Source: Vulcanimicrobiales bacterium (GTDB lineage: Bacteria > Vulcanimicrobiota > Vulcanimicrobiia > Vulcanimicrobiales > Vulcanimicrobiaceae). Taken from it: 64,000 nt of DNA. The notes beneath the pieces are model-generated. The model ran no database searches and was not told where the DNA came from. It saw only the letters and a list, made by a program, of their open reading frames with translations. Positions 3,563 to 63,986 of this stretch are shown here, piece by piece. Location of the stretch: contig JBBQQR010000009.1 of assembly GCA_038215615.1 (NCBI GenBank), positions 1 through 64,000 of the forward strand. Direction: 5' to 3'. The position numbers were made by a program, and so were the translations under genes. Every line of letters begins with the position of its first letter. Position 1 is the stretch's first letter.

Positions 3563-4300
3563 TCACAATTTGAGGTTGGCGCCCCCCGCGTCGCGATGGA
3601 ACATCTTTACGGTGTCGAGTGAATATTCGTCTAAGTCTTTGCCCACCAGGGGAAGCTTCTTTATGAGCTCGTTTGTCAACGTAATAATGTGGCATCCGGC
3701 TCGGTCGGCCTGAAAGAGGTTGAGCGTCTCGCGCGCGCTCGCCCAAATGAGTTCGAATTTAGGATGCTCCTGGAGCATCTCGACCGCCTGCTCGATCACG
3801 GGCGCTGGATCGCGGCCGGTGTCGGCGATGCGCCCGGCAAAAACCGAAATGTAGGCGGGGACGGCCGGCTCGAGCGCGTCGCGAGCTTCGGCCACTTGAG
3901 GCAGAGTCATGAGCGCCGTAATATTGAGCTTAATACCTTCGCCTGCCAACCGTCGCACCAGGTTCTTTGTGGGTTCGGCTTTCGTGTTGGTGATCGGGAT
4001 CTTGACGTAGACGTTTTCGCCCCACGCAGCAATCTTGCGAGCCTGCCGCTCCATCTCCGCGTCGTCGTCGCTGATCACCTCGAACGAAACCGGACGATGG
4101 CCGATCGCGCCAAGAACTTCCCGCGCAAAAGTTTCATAATCGCTGACTCCAGCTGAATGCATCATGCTCGGATTGGTCGTGAAGCCCTTGAGCAGCGGAA
4201 GCGCGCAAAGCGCGCGCATTCCCGAAGCATCAGCGCCGTCGGCGAAGATCTTGATGCGCAGCCGTTCGATATCCGCGGAACTCTTTATGTGGACTCCCAT
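3563..4300 (-). CDS. tal: transaldolase (short type found in heptose clusters)
   Basis: IKIFADGAD, GFTTNPS, NVYVKIP, SVFAGRIADTG, LIWASARE. Confidence 0.85.
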   Translation of the reverse strand: MGVHIKSSADIERLRIKIFADGADASGMRALCALPLLKGFTTNPSMMHSAGVSDYETFAREVLGAIGHRPVSFEVISDDDAEMERQARKIAAWGENVYVKIPITNTKAEPTKNLVRRLAGEGIKLNITALMTLPQVAEARDALEPAVPAYISVFAGRIADTGRDPAPVIEQAVEMLQEHPKFELIWASARETLNLFQADRAGCHIITLTNELIKKLPLVGKDLDEYSLDTVKMFHRDAGGANLKL

Positions 4301-15607: not shown

Positions 15608-16596
15608 ATGGCAAGTCTATCTTCGTTACGGGCGGCACCGGCTCGTTCGGCCAAGCATTCGTCGCTACGGTGCTGCAGCGTTACAAGCCGCGGGAAGTGA
15701 TCGTTTTCTCGCGAGACGAGCAGAAGCAGTACGAGATGCGTCATTCCGTGGCGCGCGATGGAGTTCGGTATGTATTAGGCGATGTCCGCGATCGCGAACG
15801 TCTCACGCGCGCGTCCCAAGGCGTGGACATCATTGTGCACGCCGCCGCGCTGAAACAAGTGCCGACTGCCGAGCACAATCCGATCGAGGCCGTGAAGACG
15901 AATATCTGGGGCGCGCAGAACGTGATATTTGCCGCCATCGACAATAGCGTTTCGCGCGTCATAGCGCTGTCGACCGACAAGGCCGTCAATCCTATCAACC
16001 TGTACGGTGCGACAAAGCTGGTCTCCGACAAGTTGTTCGTGGCGGCAAATGCGACCGGCGACGCGGGGCAAACGATGTTTTCGGTTGTCCGCTACGGCAA
16101 CGTGTTTACGTCACGCGGCTCGGTCGTGCCGTATTTTCAAAAACTCTCGGCCGAAGGCGCTTCGAAACTTCCCATTACGGATGTTCGGATGACGCGCTTC
16201 TGGATTACGCTGCAGGCCGGCGTCGATTTCGTACTGGGCTGCCTTGCGCGAATGCAAGGTGGGGAGATTTTCGTCCCGCGTATTCCGTCCGTACGTATGA
16301 TTGACGTCGCGAAGGCGGTCGCGCCGGGGTTGGGATTCGAGGTCACTGGGATACGTCCGGGTGAGAAGCTGCACGAAACGCTTTGTCCGAAAGATGAAGC
16401 GCACCTGACGCTCCGGTTTGGCGAACATTTCGTCATCCGGCCTTCGATTGCGATGCCCCCGGGCCGTTCTTACGGCATCGATGCTTTAGGAGAGCAGGGC
16501 GCGCCGGTTGAGGAAGGCTTTGAATATACTTCCGCGAGCAACGAGCACTTTCTGAAAGCCGAAGAGCTTCGCCGTCAGGTGGGCGCGACGGGCTGA
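15601..16596 (+). CDS. pseB: UDP-N-acetylglucosamine 4,6-dehydratase (inverting)
   Basis: TGGTGSFG, SRDEQKQ, HAAALKQVP, LSTDKA.NPINLYGATKL, VRYGNV..SRGSV, MTRFWITL, GIRPGEKLHE. Confidence 0.92.
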   Translation: MLNGKSIFVTGGTGSFGQAFVATVLQRYKPREVIVFSRDEQKQYEMRHSVARDGVRYVLGDVRDRERLTRASQGVDIIVHAAALKQVPTAEHNPIEAVKTNIWGAQNVIFAAIDNSVSRVIALSTDKAVNPINLYGATKLVSDKLFVAANATGDAGQTMFSVVRYGNVFTSRGSVVPYFQKLSAEGASKLPITDVRMTRFWITLQAGVDFVLGCLARMQGGEIFVPRIPSVRMIDVAKAVAPGLGFEVTGIRPGEKLHETLCPKDEAHLTLRFGEHFVIRPSIAMPPGRSYGIDALGEQGAPVEEGFEYTSASNEHFLKAEELRRQVGATG

Positions 16597-32056: not shown

Positions 32057-33163
32057 GTGCGGCTGTTACTGAGCGGGTACTATGGGTTTGGAAACCTCGG
32101 CGATGAAGCGCTTCTGGCTGTGATCGTCTCGCAACTTCGCACGCGACATCCCTATGCCGAAATCGACGTGCTCAGCGCCAAGCCCGAGGTGACGGCGCAC
32201 GAATTGCGGGTGGACGCGACGCCGCGCTGGGATTCCAAGGCGGTGCGCCAAGCGATCGAACGCGCCGACGTAGTGCTTTCGGGCGGCGGCGGATTGCTGC
32301 AAAATGCGACCAGCTTGCGCAGCCTCATCTATTACAGCGGCATTATTCGGGCTGCGGTGCGCGCGCGGCGAACGACGATGATCTTCGCGCAGTCGATCGG
32401 TCCGCTCGATTTTTGGGGAAGAACCGTCGTGCGTGAAACGTGTAAGGGTATCGCGGGCGCAACCGTTCGTGACGATCGGTCGCGCGAGTTGCTCGGCTCG
32501 CTGCTGCCCGGCATCCGGGTGGAACGAACCGCGGACCCGGCATTTCTGTTCGAAACGCCCGAGGATCAAGATGACTTTTCCGCCGACGGTTTGGGACCGC
32601 AAAGCGATCCGCTCGCGATTATCAGCGTGCGCAAGGCCAATGGTTTGAAAGATCGCATCGACGTGCTGGCGCGGGCGGTCGACCGGCTGAGCGAAGAGCA
32701 TGGGTTGCGAGTTGCGTTTCTTCCGCTGGGCGGCGCGTCCGATGCGGAAGTTTCCACGACGATCATTCGCAAGTGCCGCACGCCGGCCGTGCTGTTGCCC
32801 GAAGCGCCGCTCGCTCGCGCTGCAAACATTATCGGGCGCGCCAAAGTTTTGGTCGGTATGCGGCTGCATTCGCTCATTCTGGCTGCGCGTCAGGGCGTGC
32901 CGTTTCTGGCGATTCCCTACGATCCGAAGGTCACGGCTTTTTGCGCAGATCTGGCTTATCCGCTGCCGCCGCTTTTTTCGCTCGAGACACCGGAAGAAAA
33001 GCCGGCTCCCGAGGCGGTCGATTCGGCGATCGACGCTCTGTGGAACCGGCGCGAGTCGCTGCGCGAGTACTTGCTGGCCGCGCGCGAGCCGCTGGAGCGA
33101 TTGGCGCTGCGCAACTTTGAAGTGCTCGACGAGCTGATCGCGCAAGGGCCGCCGCGTGAGTGA
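32057..33163 (+). CDS. csaB: polysaccharide pyruvyl transferase
   Basis: SGYYGFGNLGDEA, SGGGGLLQ.ATS.RSL.YY, QSIGP, GMRLHSLI, YDPKV. Confidence 0.9.
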   Translation: MRLLLSGYYGFGNLGDEALLAVIVSQLRTRHPYAEIDVLSAKPEVTAHELRVDATPRWDSKAVRQAIERADVVLSGGGGLLQNATSLRSLIYYSGIIRAAVRARRTTMIFAQSIGPLDFWGRTVVRETCKGIAGATVRDDRSRELLGSLLPGIRVERTADPAFLFETPEDQDDFSADGLGPQSDPLAIISVRKANGLKDRIDVLARAVDRLSEEHGLRVAFLPLGGASDAEVSTTIIRKCRTPAVLLPEAPLARAANIIGRAKVLVGMRLHSLILAARQGVPFLAIPYDPKVTAFCADLAYPLPPLFSLETPEEKPAPEAVDSAIDALWNRRESLREYLLAAREPLERLALRNFEVLDELIAQGPPRE

Positions 33164-35957
33164 TCCGGCGGAACGCGATTATCGCGACACGCTGAACCTG
33201 CCGAAGACGGACTTTCCGATGAAAGCGGACTTGCCGAAGCGGGAGCCCGACCGCGTCGCGTGGTGGGAAGAGCGGCGCACCTACGAAAAACGCCTCGAGC
33301 GCAATGCGCGCAACGCGCCGTGGATATTGCACGACGGTCCACCTTATGCCAACGGCGAGCTGCACATGGGCCATTTCCTGAACATGGTCCTGAAAGACAT
33401 CTTCGTAAAAATAGCGCTAATCGATTCGCGCTGGGCGAAGTTCGTGCCGGGCTGGGACATGCATGGCTTACCGATCGAGCTCGATACGCTCAAGCATCTA
33501 AAAATAAAAGATTTTCACGACGTCGATCCGGTCGAGTTCCGGGAGAAGTGCAAAGAGCGCGCGCTGCATTGGCTGGACCGCCAACGCTCGGTGCGCATGC
33601 GCATGGGGAACTTCGGCGACTGGCAGCATCCGTATCGCACGATCGATCCCGAATTTGAAGCGACGATCGTGGAAACGCTCGGCGCGCTCGCATCCAAGAA
33701 TCAGCTCTACAAAGGCCTGCGCTCGACGCTGTGGTGCATTCACGACGAAACGGCGCTCGCCGAAGCGGAGATCGAATACAAGCCGCGCGTCTCGCCGTCG
33801 GTCACGGTACGTTTTACCGCGAACGACGCCCAACGAATGGCACTCTTAAGTGCCATGGCGAGCCTGTCGAACCACCCCGAGCAGCGCGGCGTAGCCGCGC
33901 AAGCCGAGGGGCTTTCAAAGCTAAGCCTCCTCATCTGGACCACGACACCGTGGACGCTGCCCGCAAATGCCGCGATCGCGCTGCGTCCGGATGCCGAGTA
34001 TGGTTTGTACGTGGTGGGCGATGAAGCGGTGATTGTTGCCGATGCGCTCGCCGAAAAAACGTTAGGCGACCGCGTCGTGGACGCGCGGCGAATCGGGGGC
34101 GCGAAGGGAAGCGCGTTGGAAGGATTGGCGGTCCGCCATCCGTTCATGGATCGCGACACGCCGATCGTGCTCGCCGATTACGTCGACATGGAAACCGGAA
34201 CCGGCGCGGTACACACGGCGCCGGGGCACGGTGCGGACGACTTCGAAACGGGCGTGAAATACAATTTGCCGATTATCAATCCGGTCAATTCTGGCGGCGT
34301 TTTCACGAGCGAAGCGGGACCGTACGCCGGCATGCACATTTGGAAAGCCAATCCGAAGATCGTCGAGGATCTGCGCGCGAGCGGCGCGCTTTGGGATTAT
34401 GCGGACTTCGAACACAGCTATCCGCACTGCTGGCGCTGCCACAACCCGGTGATCTTCCGCGCAACCGCGCAGTGGTTCATCGCGATGGATCAAAACCGGC
34501 TGCGCGCGCGCACGATCGAAAACATCCGCAGCGTGCAGTGGACGCCCGCGTGGGGCCAAGAACGCATCGCGCAAATGCTCGAGACGCATCCCGAGTGGTG
34601 CATCTCGCGTCAGCGCACGTGGGGAACGCCGATTCCGGCAATTGTTTGCAAGGGATGCGGCGAATCGATCCTCGATCCCGAAGTCGCCCGCATTACTGCC
34701 GAAATCTTTCGGGAACGCGGCGCCAATGCGTGGTGGACCGATCCGGTGCAGAGTTTTCTGCCGCCAAATTTTGCCTGCCCCAAGTGCCGAAGCACGACGT
34801 TCGAAAAAGAAAAGAACATCGTCGACATCTGGTTTGAATCGGGCGTGACGCACTTGGCCGTGCTCGGCAAAAACGGCTTGCCTTGGCCGTCCGATCTGGT
34901 GCTGGAAGGCGGCGATCAGTATCGCGGCTGGTTCCGCAGCTCGATCGTGACGGCGACCGCGGTTAAAGGCGTGGCGCCTTATAAACACGTGGTGAAGAAC
35001 GGCTGGGTCAACGACGAGAGCGGCCGGCAGATGAGCAAATCGCTCGGCACCGGCATCGACGCGCAGGAAGCGATGCAAAAATGGGGCGCGGACGTGCTGC
35101 GTTTGTGGGCGGCTTCGGTGGAGTTCGTCGACGACGTGCGCTTCGGGCCGCACGTCATCGAACAAGTCAGCCGCGTTTACCGCAACATTCGCAATCGCCT
35201 TCGCTTCATGGTGAGCAATCTTGGCGACGTGAATCCGGACGATCTCATCGCGCGCGAGAACATGGAGCCATTCGACGCGCTGGCGTGCGAGCAAGTCGAT
35301 CGCTGGACCGTGACCGTCCTGGAGTCGCTGCGCGACTACGACTTACACGGCGCTTATTTAGAGATCGTGCGTTTCGAAGGAGATGACCTCTCAAGCTTCT
35401 ATTTCGATGCGCTGAAGGACCGGCTCTATTCGAGCGCAGCCGGGGCGTCGCGCCGGCGCAGCGCGCAGAGCGCGCTCTTCTATATATTGCAGCGCGTGCT
35501 GGCAGTGCTGGCGCCACTCCTTTCCTTTACGGCGGAAGAAGCGTGGCAAGCGGTGCCGGCGGAGTTGCGCCGCAGCGACAGCGTCTTCGACCTGACTTTC
35601 GAATCGGGGCGCCCGGCCGGAGAAAAGGCTGCCGCCCTCTGGCAGCTGCTGAAAGAATTGCGCCAGCAAGTCGCCGCTAACGAGTCGCCGCGCGACTTTG
35701 AGGCCGACGCGAGCAGCGTTGTCGTTCCGGCGGCGATGCTGAACGACGTGACGGCGTTGGGCGACGGACTCCGCGAAGCTCTTGTGGTTTCCACTGTCGA
35801 GCGCGTGTCGGGTGACGGCGAGGAACGTCGCGTCTATTTACTGCCCGCTAAGGGCTCCAAATGCAAACGCTGCTGGAAATACCTACCGCTTGGAAGCGAT
35901 GCACAACATCCGTCGCTGTGCGCGCCGTGCGCAGAAACGGTTCATGCACTCGCTTAG
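33156..35957 (+). CDS. ileS: isoleucine--tRNA ligase
   Basis: DTLNLPKTDFPM, HDGPPYANG.LHMGH, WTTTPWT, WCISRQR, QMSKS, C-terminal CKRC...C..C. Confidence 0.97.
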   Translation: MSDPAERDYRDTLNLPKTDFPMKADLPKREPDRVAWWEERRTYEKRLERNARNAPWILHDGPPYANGELHMGHFLNMVLKDIFVKIALIDSRWAKFVPGWDMHGLPIELDTLKHLKIKDFHDVDPVEFREKCKERALHWLDRQRSVRMRMGNFGDWQHPYRTIDPEFEATIVETLGALASKNQLYKGLRSTLWCIHDETALAEAEIEYKPRVSPSVTVRFTANDAQRMALLSAMASLSNHPEQRGVAAQAEGLSKLSLLIWTTTPWTLPANAAIALRPDAEYGLYVVGDEAVIVADALAEKTLGDRVVDARRIGGAKGSALEGLAVRHPFMDRDTPIVLADYVDMETGTGAVHTAPGHGADDFETGVKYNLPIINPVNSGGVFTSEAGPYAGMHIWKANPKIVEDLRASGALWDYADFEHSYPHCWRCHNPVIFRATAQWFIAMDQNRLRARTIENIRSVQWTPAWGQERIAQMLETHPEWCISRQRTWGTPIPAIVCKGCGESILDPEVARITAEIFRERGANAWWTDPVQSFLPPNFACPKCRSTTFEKEKNIVDIWFESGVTHLAVLGKNGLPWPSDLVLEGGDQYRGWFRSSIVTATAVKGVAPYKHVVKNGWVNDESGRQMSKSLGTGIDAQEAMQKWGADVLRLWAASVEFVDDVRFGPHVIEQVSRVYRNIRNRLRFMVSNLGDVNPDDLIARENMEPFDALACEQVDRWTVTVLESLRDYDLHGAYLEIVRFEGDDLSSFYFDALKDRLYSSAAGASRRRSAQSALFYILQRVLAVLAPLLSFTAEEAWQAVPAELRRSDSVFDLTFESGRPAGEKAAALWQLLKELRQQVAANESPRDFEADASSVVVPAAMLNDVTALGDGLREALVVSTVERVSGDGEERRVYLLPAKGSKCKRCWKYLPLGSDAQHPSLCAPCAETVHALA
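33851..33912 (+). repeat. REP-like composite palindrome, in frame inside ileS
   Basis: TGCCA TGG CGAG CCTG TCGAA CCA CCC CGAG CAG CGCGGC GTA GCCGCG CAAG CCGAG GGG C aligns with the copy at 35974. Confidence 0.85.
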
Positions 35958-35973
35958 CGTAGGGCGTTCATGT

Positions 35974-36035
35974 TGTCATCGTGAGCCTGTCGAACGACCC
36001 TGAGTAGCGCATCTGCGATGCGCGGATCGAAGGGC
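35974..36035 (+). repeat. REP-like composite palindrome, left flank of the GIY-YIG gene
   Basis: TGTCA TCG TGAG CCTG TCGAA CGA CCC TGAG TAG CGCATC TGC GATGCG CGGA TCGAA GGG C. Confidence 0.9.
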
Positions 36036-36077
36036 TCGGGGCCTTGTTAAATGTTTCCTCGGTCGCAGTAGAGACGC

Positions 36078-36367
36078 ATGCGACGTTATTACGTGTACAT
36101 GTTACAGTGCGCCGACGGCAGCTTCTATATCGGGATAACGAACAATTTGGATTTGCGCGTTTGGCAGCACAACGAAGGTATCGATACGCACTGCTATACG
36201 TACTTGAGGCGCCCCGCGACACTCGTCTATTCCACCGATTTCGATGACCCGAAAAGGGCCATCTCGTGGGAAAAAAGCTCAAAGGCTGGTCACGTAAAAA
36301 GAAACAAGCTCTCATCGATGATAACTGGAGCCGAATAAGCGAGCTCGCGCGTAGAAAAATCGTGTGA
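36078..36367 (+). pseudogene. small GIY-YIG nuclease (UPF0213/YhbQ-like), 1-nt frameshift at the A run 36271-36276
   Basis: YYVYMLQCADGSFYIGITNNL..R..QHN.G. The -1 frame continues with the family tail KLKGWSRKKKQALIDDNW to TGA 36365-36367. Confidence 0.85.
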
Positions 36368-36371
36368 ACGC

Positions 36372-36433
36372 GCCCCCTCGACCTGGGCGCTTTCGCGCCC
36401 TGCTCGGGGTCCTTCGACAGGCTCAGGATGACA
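36372..36433 (-). repeat. REP-like composite palindrome, right flank of the GIY-YIG gene (inverted)
   Basis: Reverse complement: TGTCA TCC TGAG CCTG TCGAA GGA CCC CGAG CAG GGCGC GAAA GCGCC CAGG TCGAG GGG. Confidence 0.9.
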
Positions 36434-36447
36434 ACTGATAGGCGACG

Positions 36448-36885
36448 CTATTTCAGCGTCTGGACAAACTCCGCAACGTCGTGAAGATCGCGCGGCGTCA
36501 TCTTCCAGCGCGGCATGACGGGATCGAGCACCTTGCCCTGGTTATCGACGCCGGTGGAAATGGCGCGCTCCAAACTTTGGAGCGTATAGGCCGGTTTGAC
36601 GGACGCGAGCGCCTTTTGCCGCAAGTCGGCGCTCACGGCTCCTCCCGGCAGGTGCACGCCGCCCGAACCATCGGCGCGATGGCAGGCCGCGCACGACGTG
36701 CGCAGCGGCGGATGCAGTGCATTGATGCGAAAACCTTGGCTGTCCTTGCCGGTGAGGAAGATCATACGCCCATCGGACATAGCGCTCATCCTGGCTGCGG
36801 TCGCGGCGCGCTGCGCTTGCATCGAGTTGTTCGCGCACGCGCAAAGCGTGGTTAACGCAACGAGCGGAATGATATATTTTCGCAC
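36448..36885 (-). CDS. c-type cytochrome lipoprotein
   Basis: Lipobox-like LCAC, single CAACH heme motif, distal MP; GGAGG before TTG. Confidence 0.8.
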   Translation of the reverse strand: MRKYIIPLVALTTLCACANNSMQAQRAATAARMSAMSDGRMIFLTGKDSQGFRINALHPPLRTSCAACHRADGSGGVHLPGGAVSADLRQKALASVKPAYTLQSLERAISTGVDNQGKVLDPVMPRWKMTPRDLHDVAEFVQTLK

Positions 36886-36920: not shown

Positions 36921-39732
<2,812 letters not shown>

Positions 39733-43428: not shown

Positions 43429-44497
43429 CACGATCGCGGTTCTGCCCGGCGACGGCATCGGTCCTGAAGTGACCGGCGCCGCGGTGCGGGTGCTTCAAAA
43501 AACGCGTCCCGATCTCGAGTGCATTCAAGCGGATGTAGGCGGCACGGCGTTGCGCGCCGGTAAGCCGGCGCTGCCCGAAGAAACGCGGGCGCTGTGCGAC
43601 CGGTCGGACGCAATTCTCTTTGGCTCGGTCGGATTACCCGAATATGACGGCAAACCGCTGGCCGAGCGCCCGGAGTACGCGCTCTTTTTATTGCGGCGCG
43701 ATTACGAACTCTACGCGAACTTGCGGCCGGTCCGACTTTTTAGTGGACTCGAATCTGCGTCGAGTTTGAAGCCCGAGCTGCTCAAGGATCTCGATCTGAT
43801 CGTCGTGCGCGAATTGACCGGCGGCATTTACTTTGGAAAACCGAAAGAGCAGCGCGTTGGGAGCGACGGTGTCGAAGAAGCCGTTGACACGATGGTGTAC
43901 CGCGCCCCGGAGATCGAGCGCATCGCGCGCGTAGCGTTCGAACTGGCGGGCAAACGGCGGAAGCTGGTCACGTCCGTCGACAAGCAAAACATTTTGGAGA
44001 CGTCGCGTTTGTGGCGCCGCGTCGTGGACCGCATCGCGCCGGAGTATCCCGGCGTGCGCGTCGCGCACTTGCTCGTTGATAACGCGGCGATGCAGCTGGT
44101 CCGGCGCCCGGCCCAATTCGACGTGATGCTCACCGAAAATATGTTCGGCGACATTCTTTCCGACGAAGCGGCGATGCTGACCGGATCGATTGGAAACCTG
44201 CCCAGCGCAAGCCTCGGCACGAAGGGCACGTCTGGAAAGCAATTCGGACTCTACGAGCCGATCGGCGGCACCGCTCCCGACATCGCAGGTCGCGGGATCG
44301 CCAATCCGACGGCGGCCATTCTATCGGCGGCGATGCTGCTGCGTCACAGTTTGGACGATGAGGTAGGCGCCCAGCGAATCGAAAGCGCGGTCGAGCGGAC
44401 GTTTGCGGGCGGCGCGCGGACGGCCGATCTCGCGCAGGCCGGCGAAGCGGCGCTCACCAGCGGGGAGTTTACGGATAGGGTTTTAGACTTTTGCTGA
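43424..44497 (+). CDS. leuB: 3-isopropylmalate dehydrogenase (apparently non-canonical start)
   Basis: IAVLPGDGIGPEV, NLRP, VRELTGGIYFG, VDNAAMQL, NMFGDILSDEA, APDIAG..IANP. No ATG/GTG/TTG precedes the first motif. Confidence 0.93.
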   Translation: MSTIAVLPGDGIGPEVTGAAVRVLQKTRPDLECIQADVGGTALRAGKPALPEETRALCDRSDAILFGSVGLPEYDGKPLAERPEYALFLLRRDYELYANLRPVRLFSGLESASSLKPELLKDLDLIVVRELTGGIYFGKPKEQRVGSDGVEEAVDTMVYRAPEIERIARVAFELAGKRRKLVTSVDKQNILETSRLWRRVVDRIAPEYPGVRVAHLLVDNAAMQLVRRPAQFDVMLTENMFGDILSDEAAMLTGSIGNLPSASLGTKGTSGKQFGLYEPIGGTAPDIAGRGIANPTAAILSAAMLLRHSLDDEVGAQRIESAVERTFAGGARTADLAQAGEAALTSGEFTDRVLDFC

Positions 44498-50968: not shown

Positions 50969-52167
50969 GCTTCGAGCGCCTTTATGCCGGGGAGTTCTTT
51001 ACCCTCGAGAAATTCGAGCGTCGCGCCGCCCCCGGTGCTTACGTGCGTGACGTTCTCCGCAAAGCCGAGCTCCTCGGCCGCAGCCGCGGCGTCGCCGCCG
51101 CCGACGACCGTGCGCGCGCCGCGCCCCGTTGCGCGCGCCATCGCTTCACCGACCGCTCGCGTACCTTCGCGGTAGGGCGGTTTCTCGTAGACGCCCATCG
51201 GTCCGTTGAAAACCACGGTGCGCGCCGCTTCGATGGTCTTCGCATACGCGGCGGCAGTCTTCGGTCCGATGTCGAGGATCATGGAATTGCCGACGTCTGA
51301 CAGTTCGACTGTGTGCGCGCCGGCATCATCGTCGAACTTTGCCGAAACGACCGCGTCGACCGGAAGCATCATCTCGACGCCGCGCTTGGCAGCGAGCTCG
51401 AGCATTGCTTGGGCCGGCTGCAAATCGTCGTCGCGCAGCGACGTGCCGACATCGATCCCTTGTGCCGCCAAAAATGTGTTTGCCATTCCTCCGCCGATGC
51501 AGAAGGCCGTCACACGATCCATCAGGTTATTGAAGACGCCGACCTTGTCTTTGACCTTCGCTCCACCGATCACGCACACGTAGGGCCGGTGAGGATCGGT
51601 CAGGAGGTTCGAAAGCTCGGCGATCTCGGCTTCCATGAGCAAACCGGCGAAGGCCGGCAAGCAATGCGCGACGCCTTCGGTTGAAGCGTGCGCGCGGTGC
51701 GCCGTTCCGAAAGCGTCGTTGACGTAGAGATCGGCCAGCGCCGCCAGCTGCTTTGCAAAATGCGGATCGTTCCGTTCTTCACCCGGTTCGAAGCGGACAT
51801 TTTCGAGCATCACGATCTGTCCATCGCGCAGTGATTCAGAAGCTTCTTGCGCGGCGGGACCCACCACGTCGGGCACCAGGGGCACATCACGGTGCAAGCG
51901 TTCGGCTAGGGCAGCGGCAACCGGTTTCAACGTGTATTTCGGGTTGCGTTTGCCCTCCGGCCGCCCCAAATGCGAAACGATGATCGTGCGCGCGCCGCGA
52001 TCGGAAAGATAGCGTAACGTCGGGAGCGCGGAATCGATCCGTTTGTAGTCGAGAATAGCCTGCCCTGAGCCTGCCGAAGGGTCTTTGAGCGGCACGTTGA
52101 GGTCTTCGCGGAGCAGCACGCGCTTGCCGCGCACGTCCGCGTCTTTCAGTGTGCGAAGCGTGGGCAC
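50965..52167 (-). CDS. pgk: phosphoglycerate kinase
   Basis: [44 protein letters not shown] overlaps the gap stop. Confidence 0.97.
52058..52081 (+). repeat. short REP-like unit, in frame inside pgk
   Basis: GCCTG CCC TGAG CCTG CCGAA GGG (24 bp) encodes PSAGSGQA on the gene strand. Confidence 0.8.
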
Positions 52168-53197: not shown

Positions 53198-54082
53198 TCA
53201 TCTCGAAGCGGATTCCCCGCGCAGGCGGCGCGCCAAGCGCGCCAGCGCGTTCAGACGGCTGCCGGCGGCCGGCTTGGATATGGGTGGACTGCAGCGCTTG
53301 CCCAGCTCCGCCAAACTTTCGTCGGGATGGTTGAGGCGCAGCTCCGCAATCTCGCGCAACGCCGCGCTCAAGTGGCGCAGGCCGTACGCAGAGCTGACGT
53401 AATCGATGATCTCGCGCTGTGCGGCGGCTGCGCCGGCGACTCGCTCGAGATTTGCCGCTTCTGTGTTCACCAAGCGATGAATGCGATTCTTGGTTTCCTT
53501 GAGCGCGTGGATGCCTTCAAGTTCCAATACGGTGTTGTGCGCGCCGGTGATGCCGAAGAACTGGACGATCGCCTCGAAGTCTTTATAGTAGAGCGTCGTG
53601 CGTTCGCTGCGGCGCATATTTTTCGGCGCACCGGCGACGGCGCGCAGGATCCATTCGAGTCGCTCGGCTCGCTCGCGATCCGGCGGCACGAACTCCAAGT
53701 GATAACCTTGCGATCCGGCGGATACCGAACCGCACGTCAAAAACGCGGCGCGAGCTTCCATCACACGATCGCATTTCCGAACCGGTTTGCGTGCGCGTTC
53801 GGGCTCGACCGGTATCGCAATTCGCTGCGCCGTGCGGTTTGTTTTCGTTGTCATCCTGAGGTTGTCGAAGGACCCCGAGGGGCGAGCGAAGCGAGCCTCA
53901 CGAGGGGAAAGCCTTAAAAGAAGCCGTGCAACCGCGTTGCGATGTGTCACAAAGTATGTACGCTTGCCGATCGATCGAGTACCGTAGAGTACGAGGCCGG
54001 CGAGCAGTGCTTCGCGGCAGTGCGCCTGCTCCGGCAGATCGCGTGCCAGCGCGTCTTTGGTGTCGGCGGAAAGATTACGCAT
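53198..54082 (-). CDS. whiA: DNA-binding protein WhiA
   Basis: R.AFL..GSVS...[31 protein letters not shown]. Confidence 0.9.
53849..53907 (+). repeat. REP-like composite palindrome, in frame inside whiA (antisense to the gene)
   Basis: TGTCA TCC TGAG GTTG TCGAA GGA CCC CGAG G GGC GA GCGAAGC GA GCC TCA CGAG GGG. Confidence 0.88.
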
Positions 54083-62776: not shown

Positions 62777-63986
62777 AAACACCAGCCGCAATTGCAAATG
62801 GAACGAGCGCGATCGCAACGCTCAGAGACGTGGAAAGATCGGTCATGGCATCGGGAAGATAGCGCAAGACCGAAGCCAGCGTTAACGCCACGATCGCCCA
62901 CGCGGCGGGAGTTTCCCACGCAAAAAGCGCCGCCGGTAAGATCCACAGCGCGTACCATGGGTACGGGTTGGGAATCGCAATCCATAGCGCGAGCGCCAGC
63001 AGCGCGGCGCCGCTGTGGTTGCGCTTCCATAAGAGAATGCATCCGCCGATCGCTAACGCCACGGCAAGTGCGGCGGTAAGCGCGAGCGCCGCGGATCCGC
63101 CAAACGCCGCGTCTAGGACGTACTGCAGGGAGAATTGCGGGAAATAGGTTCCGCGTCCGGCGTTGTGCGAGAGCTGTGCCAGCGCGGGCCACGCGACGAC
63201 TGCCGCCGCGGCGAGTCCCAATAGCGTGCCGGTTAAGACGCGCGAGCGCAAGCGACTCTCTGCGAACATGAACGGAGCGACTGCGGCGGCTAGCAAGCCC
63301 GGCGCTTTTACGAGCGCCGATAACGAAACGACGACGGCACCCGTAAAGTGGCGCCCGCGTGTGATCAAGGCGGATCCCGCTAAAACGATTGCAACAAGGT
63401 AGACATCGTTGTGTCCTTCGGCCGCGGCCCAGATCGCGATCGGATTGAGCGCGATGCCCGCGGCGGCTGCGACGCGCGTGCGTTCGGGAAATGCCGCATG
63501 CGCCAGAGGAGCGCAGAGAACGAGCGCTCCGCAAGCACTGATGCGCAAGGCCCACAGCGGGGCGGCGGGGCCGAAGCCGGCAAAGATCGCGACGGTCGCT
63601 TGCGTGAACCATACGAATGCCGGGCCGTAAACGCAAGCCGGCGGAGGATTTCCCCACTGCCACAGCACCGCATCCATCAGCGGACCGCGCAAAGGAACGG
63701 CCGCATGCGCGTAGGGATCCAACCCGTGCAGCGCCATCAATCCGTACCCGGCGTAGGCGTAAACGTCGCTTGAAAATACGACCGGAAAAAACAACGCAGC
63801 TGTACACGCGAGCGCGCTGCAAATGAGTGTCATGGCGAGCGTAGTCGAACCACCCCGAGCAGCGCCCGGTACGGGCGCAAGCCGAGGGGATGCCAGGACC
63901 GCCACATACCCGACGCTTGCGATCGCGATCGCAACAAACAGCGCAAGCCACATCAGCGACCCGAAATTCCCCCAGTACGTCACCAC
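62691..63986 (-). CDS. GT-C polyprenol-phosphate-sugar-dependent glycosyltransferase (MptA/MptB/GT87-like), 5' end possibly outside the window
   Basis: SSDVYAY..YG, CVYGP.F, NPI...AAEGHND, PWY; polytopic. Confidence 0.75.
   Translation of the reverse strand: MVTYWGNFGSLMWLALFVAIAIASVGYVAVLASPRLAPVPGAARGGSTTLAMTLICSALACTAALFFPVVFSSDVYAYAGYGLMALHGLDPYAHAAVPLRGPLMDAVLWQWGNPPPACVYGPAFVWFTQATVAIFAGFGPAAPLWALRISACGALVLCAPLAHAAFPERTRVAAAAGIALNPIAIWAAAEGHNDVYLVAIVLAGSALITRGRHFTGAVVVSLSALVKAPGLLAAAVAPFMFAESRLRSRVLTGTLLGLAAAAVVAWPALAQLSHNAGRGTYFPQFSLQYVLDAAFGGSAALALTAALAVALAIGGCILLWKRNHSGAALLALALWIAIPNPYPWYALWILPAALFAWETPAAWAIVALTLASVLRYLPDAMTDLSTSLSVAIALVPFAIAAGVFIACSRRLRSGLPENHTPVPDPALYHFP

Follow-up and report, generated by a model that had tools for sequence, protein, structure and literature searches.

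We describe here a 460-bp cassette in which a small gene for a nuclease of the GIY-YIG type has a hairpin repeat on either side, the two copies being inverted relative to each other. It lies at positions 35974-36433 of a 64,000-nucleotide stretch of contig JBBQQR010000009.1 (assembly GCA_038215615.1, Vulcanimicrobiales bacterium); this whole stretch is called the window below, and the genome it belongs to (G000; 2.21 Mb, 54 contigs, completeness 100%) the source genome. By analogy with Ssn and its NTS/SRM repeats, the nuclease probably recognises the members of this repeat family in their single-stranded DNA (ssDNA) form. The association of a nuclease with hairpins is, from the available text of Chenal et al. 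(2025, PMC11893778), already published in kind, and the present cassette is likely a divergent variant of it.

The same text (Chenal et al., Nat Commun 2025, PMC11893778) presents SsnA of N. meningitidis as a 94-aa single-domain GIY-YIG protein, shown experimentally to bind the NTS hairpin, tagged CGTCAT, when it is ssDNA and in no other form, and to cut a few nucleotides upstream; cleavage requires Y6, Y17 and E64. Ssn homologs have SRM repeats nearby in 71% of cases and on both sides in 42%. The NTS-ssnA-NTS layout is likened to an insertion sequence (IS), and the authors draw a parallel with the repetitive extragenic palindromes (REPs) and RAYT.

The cassette begins with TGTCATC, ends with GATGACA and contains one open reading frame (ORF) only, that of the GIY-YIG protein. 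An earlier note made from the letters had described it so, and both the letters and the PF01541 match of the gene (E 4.1e-14) bear this out. A repeat search of the window delimits inverted arms of 39 nt at 35972-36010 and 36397-36435, 87% complementary and with 386 nt between them. The right repeat, on the minus strand, ends 4-6 nt past the stop codon of the GIY-YIG gene (36365-36367), close to the restored stop as had been noted. No direct target duplication is visible at the cassette, again in agreement with the note: the inverted repeat merely continues 2 nt further. The parts of the cassette are the following.

35972..36037, plus strand: left copy of the two-module hairpin repeat (nhmmer E 9.4e-15), with its TGTCAT tag at the outer (left) end and the layout TGTCA-TCG-TGAGCCTGTCGAA-CGA-C-CCT-GAGT-[GC hairpin]-ATCGAA-GGG
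36078..36275, plus strand: GIY-YIG gene, residues 1-66, in frame 1 (PF01541 E 4.1e-14; 88% identical to P0002, an intact ortholog of 96 aa)
36271..36276, plus strand: A6 run, site of the frame break, where the gene lacks one base that its orthologs have
36269..36367, plus strand: last (C-terminal) third of the gene, read in the -1 frame as GKKLKGWSRKKKQALIDDNWSRISELARRKIV followed by the stop codon, as aligned to intact homologs
36371..36436, minus strand: right repeat copy, inverted (nhmmer E 7.7e-17), with its TGTCAT tag at the outer (right) end

The GIY (YVY) motif, the YIG (FYIG) motif and the conserved Glu (in WEK) all lie in the frame-1 part of the gene, and the PF01541 match, which is the only Pfam match of this ORF, spans residues 4-70. 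From residue 67 on, frame 1 encodes 20 unrelated residues; it is the -1 frame that carries the conserved C-terminus, which reads GKKLKGWSRKKKQALI... / GKKLKGWSRKKKQALIDDNW... At the break site three orthologs have TGGGAAAAGAAACTC and the window has TGGGAAAAAAGCTC, one base shorter. The frame restoration that had been presumed comes down to a one-base break in the A6 run. The same run is present in the Logan contig of the probable source run (0 differences from the window, depth ~6), a contig which is not independent of the assembly; the frameshift is no artefact of a single assembler. Logan contigs containing the stretch come from the probable source sample only, and none of the listed holders is an RNA data set. 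The genome has three PF01541 matches: the cassette gene, uvrC, and an intact YhbQ/UPF0213-type gene on contig C4 (51500-51787) which has no flanking repeats. Read from the sequence, the loss of one base of the A run inactivates the only gene copy of the cassette type in the source genome.

Intact homologs are 96-97 aa long and 79-88% identical to the window gene. An alignment of 32 rows (A4; 29 proteins from the order loci described below plus P0005, P0006 and P0010) has 20 invariant columns, among them Y10, Y20 and E68 in the numbering of A4, and the window copy retains these residues as Y7, Y17 and E65. For comparison with Ssn we used ten homologs flanked by canonical NTS/SRM, from genomes which GTDB places in one genus with N. 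lactamica NS19 (the Neisseria-genus type), together with the NTS-adjacent locus L134. In a profile alignment the Tyr/Tyr/Glu columns of our clade fall opposite PAVY, LYIG and REKQ of the Neisseria-genus profile. The three residues would then be equivalent to Y6, Y17 and E64 of SsnA, an equivalence drawn through the Neisseria-genus homologs and not through an alignment of SsnA itself. A search of the ESM Atlas returned generic GIY-YIG clusters only.

The repeat-gene-repeat arrangement is far beyond chance: none of 19,626 random 290-bp segments of the genome is flanked by the repeat on both sides, and 265 are on one side. It recurs around the gene in relatives. An intact ortholog was searched in 151 genomes of the order and the 30 best loci were examined: repeats lie at 200 nt or less on both sides of the gene in 24/30 loci and on at least one side in 30/30, some of the six loci without repeats on both sides being contig ends or read-through ORFs. 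The nearest upstream repeat is in sense orientation in the 27 loci (27/27) which have one and the nearest downstream repeat is antisense in 26/27, so the TGTCA tags face outward. A metagenome set of 80 contigs with relatives of 49-66% identity provided 66 loci with usable flanks. Here an outward copy is present in 52/66 loci and outward copies on both sides in 28/66 (shuffled flanks: 0.25 and 0); inward copies occur in 29/66, on both sides in 9. The enrichment of the repeat beside homologous genes, anticipated in the earlier note, appears in both sets.

The number of repeats also follows the presence of the gene, a comparison which the earlier note had proposed. Over the same 151 genomes, with gene presence defined as a best E < 1e-14 and repeats counted by pattern, the median number of matches is 94 in the 83 genomes with the gene (none zero, 2 below five) and 7 in the 68 genomes without it (23 zero, 20 with 20 or more); the compared genomes being kin, statistics drawn from these counts overstate independence. 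The control with the reversed pattern gives ~0. All 23 repeat-free genomes are without the gene. Inside the genus the only copy of the gene is broken in the source genome (frameshift; 37 matches) and in G127 (internal TAG; 67 matches), and the other four genomes have 108, 131, 146 and 182 matches, which suggests that repeat number falls after gene loss. Five sister-family genomes display a weak GIY-YIG match only (E 1e-7 to 1e-9) and zero repeats; the association is therefore specific to the clade of the repeat-flanked gene. The proteins extracted from ten order genomes, including four of these repeat-free sister-family genomes, were confirmed as YhbQ-like.

A different account of these counts makes the repeats an independent REP/MITE-like family (MITE, miniature inverted-repeat transposable element), spread or kept by host recombination, by replication slippage or by another enzyme, and makes the GIY-YIG gene a selfish gene of the homing type which lands in repeat doublets, these being its target and not its ends. 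It draws on the 20/68 gene-lacking genomes that retain at least 20 repeats, and on the inward copies and tandem arrays that are common near the gene (the 29/66 metagenome loci with inward copies; arrays in L014, L018 and L025). We nevertheless hold it unlikely. No gene-bearing genome is without repeats and 23/23 repeat-free genomes lack the gene; the strict outward orientation (27/27 and 26/27) is better explained by a fixed unit than by random landing, as is the constant spacing. The analysis turned up no other candidate for the enzyme: the Y1/RAYT transposase domain (PF01797) is absent from the whole source genome, 100% complete, and matched in 6/14 control genomes. The homing account moreover has the nuclease recognise the repeat too, so that the only difference between the two models is which part moves. 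The earlier idea of a cognate nuclease without a tyrosine transposase thus stands as regards the flanking, the co-occurrence and the lack of a RAYT beside the repeats, and nicking or spreading of the repeats by this clade is what would follow from the analogy with Ssn.

The repeat family itself was collected with a nhmmer profile, which gives 47 matches genome-wide at E <= 0.01, 19 of them full two-module copies. The consensus of these 19 copies is nnTTGTCATCCTGAGCTTGTCGAAGGACCCCGAGCAGCGCGC..AAGCGCGCA.GTCGAGGGGC, and the TGTCAT tag is invariant in 19/19 aligned full copies. The repeat is ~65 nt long. An unpaired YGTCAY tag stands 5' of the stem, followed by two hairpin modules, each with an invariant YGAG...CGAR box: hairpin 1 is TCC...GGA around TGAGCYTGTCGAA, with a conserved C immediately past it, and hairpin 2 is CCCY...RGGG around GAGC-[GC hairpin]-TCGAR, the GC hairpin being variable. 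In the proposed fold (17 pairs, 19 full copies) 98.1% of 323 cells are paired, and two-sided changes occur at 10/17 pairs (43 cells). None of 500 shuffles (0/500) reaches the observed values, and slid partners pair at 31-51%. The facing YGAG and CGAR boxes likely form tandem sheared G-A pairs, a pairing deduced from the boxes. When folded as ssDNA the tag strand has a z of ~ -2.0 to -2.1, its complement of -0.8 to -1.4.

The same covariation could be that of an RNA structure unrelated to the nuclease, if the repeat acted as a transcript, i.e. as a terminator, a stabiliser or a processing site. Copies do lie at gene ends, past ileS and between convergent genes, and many REPs are argued, in the available text of Di Nocera et al. 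(2013, PMC3733652), to be transcribed and to act as RNA. One-sided changes of the G-U type nevertheless concern only 2/323 paired cells, so pairing in DNA fits better than pairing in RNA; we take this low count as a hint. Besides, the repeat stands in both orientations around the same gene, Rfam at gathering thresholds matches only tRNA in the whole window, and no T-run terminator was seen beside the repeats in a scan of 35900-36500. An action as RNA also leaves the tight co-occurrence of gene and repeat unexplained, and SsnA, according to the text at hand, does not act on RNA (PMC11893778). All this makes the RNA explanation highly improbable. In the same interval, 35900-36500, the promoter and terminator scan found no promoter-like site and a single terminator-like site unrelated to the repeats. 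A permissive Rfam run on 35940-36470 gave two matches to Rubella_3 with E ~1, which we attribute to chance.

Beyond the cassette, the window contains the neighbouring genes and further repeat copies listed here.

33156-35957, plus strand: ileS, neighbour of the cassette
33849..33913, plus strand: full repeat copy inside ileS, in frame (nhmmer E 2.4e-10), its tag mutated to TGCCAT; it encodes ...MASLSNHPEQRGVAAQAEG...
36448-36885, minus strand: cytochrome c gene, neighbour of the cassette
36921-37694, minus strand: LigB-type dioxygenase gene, neighbour of the cassette
38775..38836, minus strand: solo repeat between the start of tgt and the stop of rluD (nhmmer E 6.6e-12)
38844..38854, minus strand: tag-like 11-nt site TGTCATCGTGA, made of the last codons and the stop of rluD, 9 nt 5' of the solo repeat
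52064-52097: weak repeat fragment (nhmmer E 9.6)
53847..53908, plus strand: further full repeat copy (nhmmer E 1.7e-13)
63826..63891, plus strand: further full repeat copy (nhmmer E 8.7e-10)

At least six more copies had been announced between 33.8 and 57.8 kb; this number is too high, since nhmmer finds three clear copies and a weak one there, the fourth clear copy being that at 63826-63891.

Some repeats have partial copies near their tag end. A partial 5' copy (at least 9/11 matches, at most 45 nt upstream) precedes 9/42 tagged copies of the source genome, for ~0.2 estimated by chance. Often these partial copies form short arrays in tandem, each unit consisting of 8-15 nt from the start of the repeat and a further 6-10 nt, with periods of ~17-21 nt; they may be the footprint of a processing near the tag. 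Short arrays 5' of full copies were observed in the source genome at C7:~3570-3620, C4:~39030-39080, C28:~16180-16220, C25:~540-590 and C48:~2575-2625. On another scale, up to ~20 full repeat units adjoin the nuclease gene head-to-tail, with periods of ~50-72 nt, at the loci L014, L018, L025, L026 and L028 of relatives in the order.

The locus was then compared between the source genome and five congeners (G013, G021, G033, G112 and G127). The earlier note had suggested looking downstream of ileS in relatives for an empty site, and G127 has one: the gap between ileS and the cytochrome c gene is 82 bp and contains no repeat. At the same place G033 has a gene-less inverted repeat doublet, a state which favours the homing account of the GIY-YIG gene. 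The intergenic flanks of the cassette diverge too much from those of G127 and G033 to give exact insertion boundaries. The order in G013 is ileS, repeat, cytochrome c gene (inverted), repeat, GIY gene (inverted), repeats, LigB; that of G021 and G112 is the same, with the GIY gene in the opposite direction. These states could be linked by inversions between inverted repeats, for which a third repeat, missing in the window, is needed.

The solo repeat at 38775-38836 is present in the source genome and in G112, the congener nearest to it by IleRS identity (93%), and absent from G021, G013, G127 and G033, with alignable flanks. Its first 11 nt are identical to the 11-mer TGTCATCGTGA at the end of rluD. 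Where the site is empty, rluD already ends with this sequence in G013 (...TGTCATCGTGA) and with CGTCATCGTGA, one change away, in G127. Thus the solo copy adjoins a pre-existing tag-like gene sequence, which may reflect a choice of target or a copying of the 5' end. For the copy at 53847, four congeners with a contiguous match have a site of similar length, and the contig of G112 breaks at the repeat. Over an 18.5-kb stretch of contig C8 no clear empty site was found; near ~43917-43948 of this contig G021, G112 and G013 have an extra 670-880 nt which is missing in the source genome and in G127.

Some form of the copy inside ileS is present at the same place in all five congeners, hence in all six genomes of the genus, so the insertion is old, and it is translated. 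The tag is intact in G127 and G013, which read VILSLSKD..., G112 has a 33-nt in-frame internal deletion, and G033 and G021 have a variant form.

From this polymorphism we infer that the repeats, and perhaps the cassette as a whole, have either moved or undergone rearrangement through recombination of one repeat copy with another. If the intact protein works as SsnA does, it would bind the folded top (tag) strand of each repeat and nick it a few nucleotides 5' of the tag. As the tags face outward, the predicted cuts would lie immediately beyond the ends of the cassette, one on each strand, and the repeats and the cassette would spread or rearrange in consequence of this nicking. The window copy of the gene is broken and is thus incapable of acting now. 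Since the only copy of the nuclease gene in the source genome is inactivated, its 47 repeats are probably relics which are no longer serviced.

One may go further and see in the cassettes autonomous IS-like elements, driven by a GIY-YIG nuclease that cuts outside the outward TGTCA tags, with the gene-less repeats and doublets as their MITEs. They would land beside tag-like sequences, as is suggested by the solo copy, which sits 9 nt past the rluD stop with its identical 11-mer TGTCATCGTGA. The clade would then be another Ssn-like family, so far undescribed, whose hairpins have a code of their own in the tandem G-A boxes. We regard this extension as doubtful. To our knowledge GIY-YIG chemistry is not used by any bacterial transposon, and we know of no strand-transfer chemistry for the GIY-YIG nucleases, which are hydrolytic.

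If the clade does behave like Ssn, the principle of a nuclease paired with a hairpin would cover small GIY-YIG proteins of a second group. It then reaches a soil phylum known only from metagenomes, with a repeat which the published motif misses, and it offers the ssDNA-cutting tools proposed by the Ssn authors a new code by which to recognise their substrate. The mobility of such units is raised as a question only in the available text of the Ssn paper (PMC11893778); clues on whether and how they move come from the outward direction of the tags, from sites seen both empty and filled, from the tag-like target of 11 nt and from the short 5' partial arrays. As to annotation, the repeats account for recurrent spurious peptides (VILSLSKD..., ...SFDRLTMT) and for assembly breaks in these genomes.

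Among known systems, the CGTC-tagged REPs share several features with the present repeat. From the available text of Di Nocera, De Gregorio and Rocco (2013, PMC3733652), these are an unpaired CGTC/TGTC tag at one end of a palindromic repeat, head-to-head inverted pairs, some copies inside genes, and no dedicated transposase described. Families CGTC-1 to CGTC-4 have a simple 8-9-bp stem, a 4-5-nt loop and a CCA-like tail (PMC3733652), a description to which the present repeat does not conform: it differs by the non-Watson-Crick G-A boxes in its stem and by its second hairpin. That CGTC REPs have no dedicated transposase, which the earlier note had stated, is indeed the conclusion of that text (PMC3733652), where no mention of GIY-YIG was found; as a view of these REPs without a dedicated enzyme it is superseded by what is available of Chenal et al. 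2025 (PMC11893778).

REP/RAYT REPtrons and the IS200/IS605 elements rely on HUH Y1 transposases acting on ssDNA hairpins. Like a REPtron, the cassette has a small gene between inverted hairpin repeats and the same repeats dispersed in the genome; the action on ssDNA hairpins, known for RAYT and IS200/IS605, is here a prediction only. It differs in that the source genome has no HUH/Y1 domain and in that the tag is TGTCA rather than GTAG. Both REP/RAYT and IS200/IS605 are taken up in the Discussion of Chenal et al. (PMC11893778).

The UPF0213/YhbQ proteins are of the same size and domain as the cassette protein, and the best matches to solved structures belong to them: 1zg2 BH0048 (E 2.4e-13) and 1ywl EF2693 (E 1.5e-9). 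The repeat-flanked clade nevertheless has a C-terminal motif, WEKxLKGWSRxKK, which is missing in the YhbQ-like set, and GIDxxCYTYxRRP in place of GRGAKYTRSRLP; the G-x-G-A-K-Y-T-R segment, whose consensus is seen in the YhbQ-like set, we take to be the UPF0213/YhbQ-type motif. The source genome also has its separate YhbQ-like gene, the one on contig C4 without repeats.

Rickettsia palindromic elements (RPEs) insert in frame in genes, and the repeat copy inside ileS, in frame and translated (VILSLSKD... in congeners), resembles them. It is of another sequence family, in another host, and its insertion is old. RPE-4 and RPE-6 are equated with CGTC families in the available text of Di Nocera et al. 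(2013, PMC3733652).

The comparison with Ssn is where most of what weighs against our ascription is met. The ortholog P0002 scores 24-40 bits against the ten Neisseria-genus Ssn homologs (phmmer) and 53 bits against the UPF0213 protein BH0048 (1zg2). Profile-profile scores (hhalign) are 97 for the clade with the Neisseria-genus type, 123 for the clade with the YhbQ type and 52 for the Neisseria-genus type with the YhbQ type; scored in this way, the clade appears to lie between the two. The sequence link of the clade to proven Ssn is weak. The published SRM motif, HGTCWYN(0-2)YYVSBRHN(0-5)WNVSBRGN(0-2)RNCYNB in the text at hand (PMC11893778), is found at 0/30 order loci and 0/66 metagenome loci, although as a regular expression it recovers the repeats at 10/10 Neisseria-genus loci. 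The direction of the tags is mirror-inverted: outward in our clade, inward in the Neisseria-genus Ssn loci, where they point toward the gene in 8/10 cases upstream and 8/9 downstream. The orientation of the repeats shows no bias relative to local GC skew (22/47, p 0.77). To this must be added the points given above, namely the broken state of the only clade-type gene copy in the source genome, which is the window gene, the kinship of the compared genomes, and the persistence of at least 20 repeats in 20/68 genomes lacking the gene.

A quick tree splits the YhbQ-like proteins from the side formed by the clade and Ssn (SH-aLRT 98), but the Neisseria-genus group sits in it on a very long branch (4.3). 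In N. lactamica NS19 and N. mucosa the GIY-YIG matches are only YhbQ-like proteins and UvrC. The exact 28-nt Neisseria NTS motif was observed in at least 129 stretches, none from N. meningitidis among the matches listed, whose hosts include Dehalococcoidia, Planctomycetota, Nitrospirota, Verrucomicrobiota, Latescibacterota and many Proteobacteria. Among these listed matches, one NTS locus, L134, has a GIY-YIG gene within 300-nt flanks; in L051 two NTS copies are 471 nt apart with no GIY-YIG gene between them. The Ssn clade is nearly synonymous with CDD cd10448 (GIY-YIG_unchar_3) in what is available of Chenal et al. (PMC11893778). In supplementary data 4 of that paper 7/9 Cyclobacterium genomes are marked 'cd10448 psiblast YES, CDD score >100 NO', at most a hint of a tie to the present clade, and the phylum Eremiobacterota, to which the source genome is ascribed, is absent from the supplementary files searched (12/14; PMC11893778). 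In the openly accessible literature searched, neither this type of repeat nor this clade turned out to be described.

The likenesses to Ssn are of another order than sequence scores. In both systems a single-domain GIY-YIG protein of ~95 aa (here 96-97 aa when intact) has conserved Tyr and Glu columns, and its gene is bracketed by inverted hairpin repeats with a 5' HGTCWY tag and a C past the first hairpin. In both, the repeats number tens to hundreds of copies per genome, co-occur with the gene and have no tyrosine transposase. The repeat described here, of ~65 nt with two hairpin modules, is longer than the Ssn repeats. By this analogy we file the cassette as likely working like Ssn, with a repeat code and a tag layout that differ from those of Ssn.

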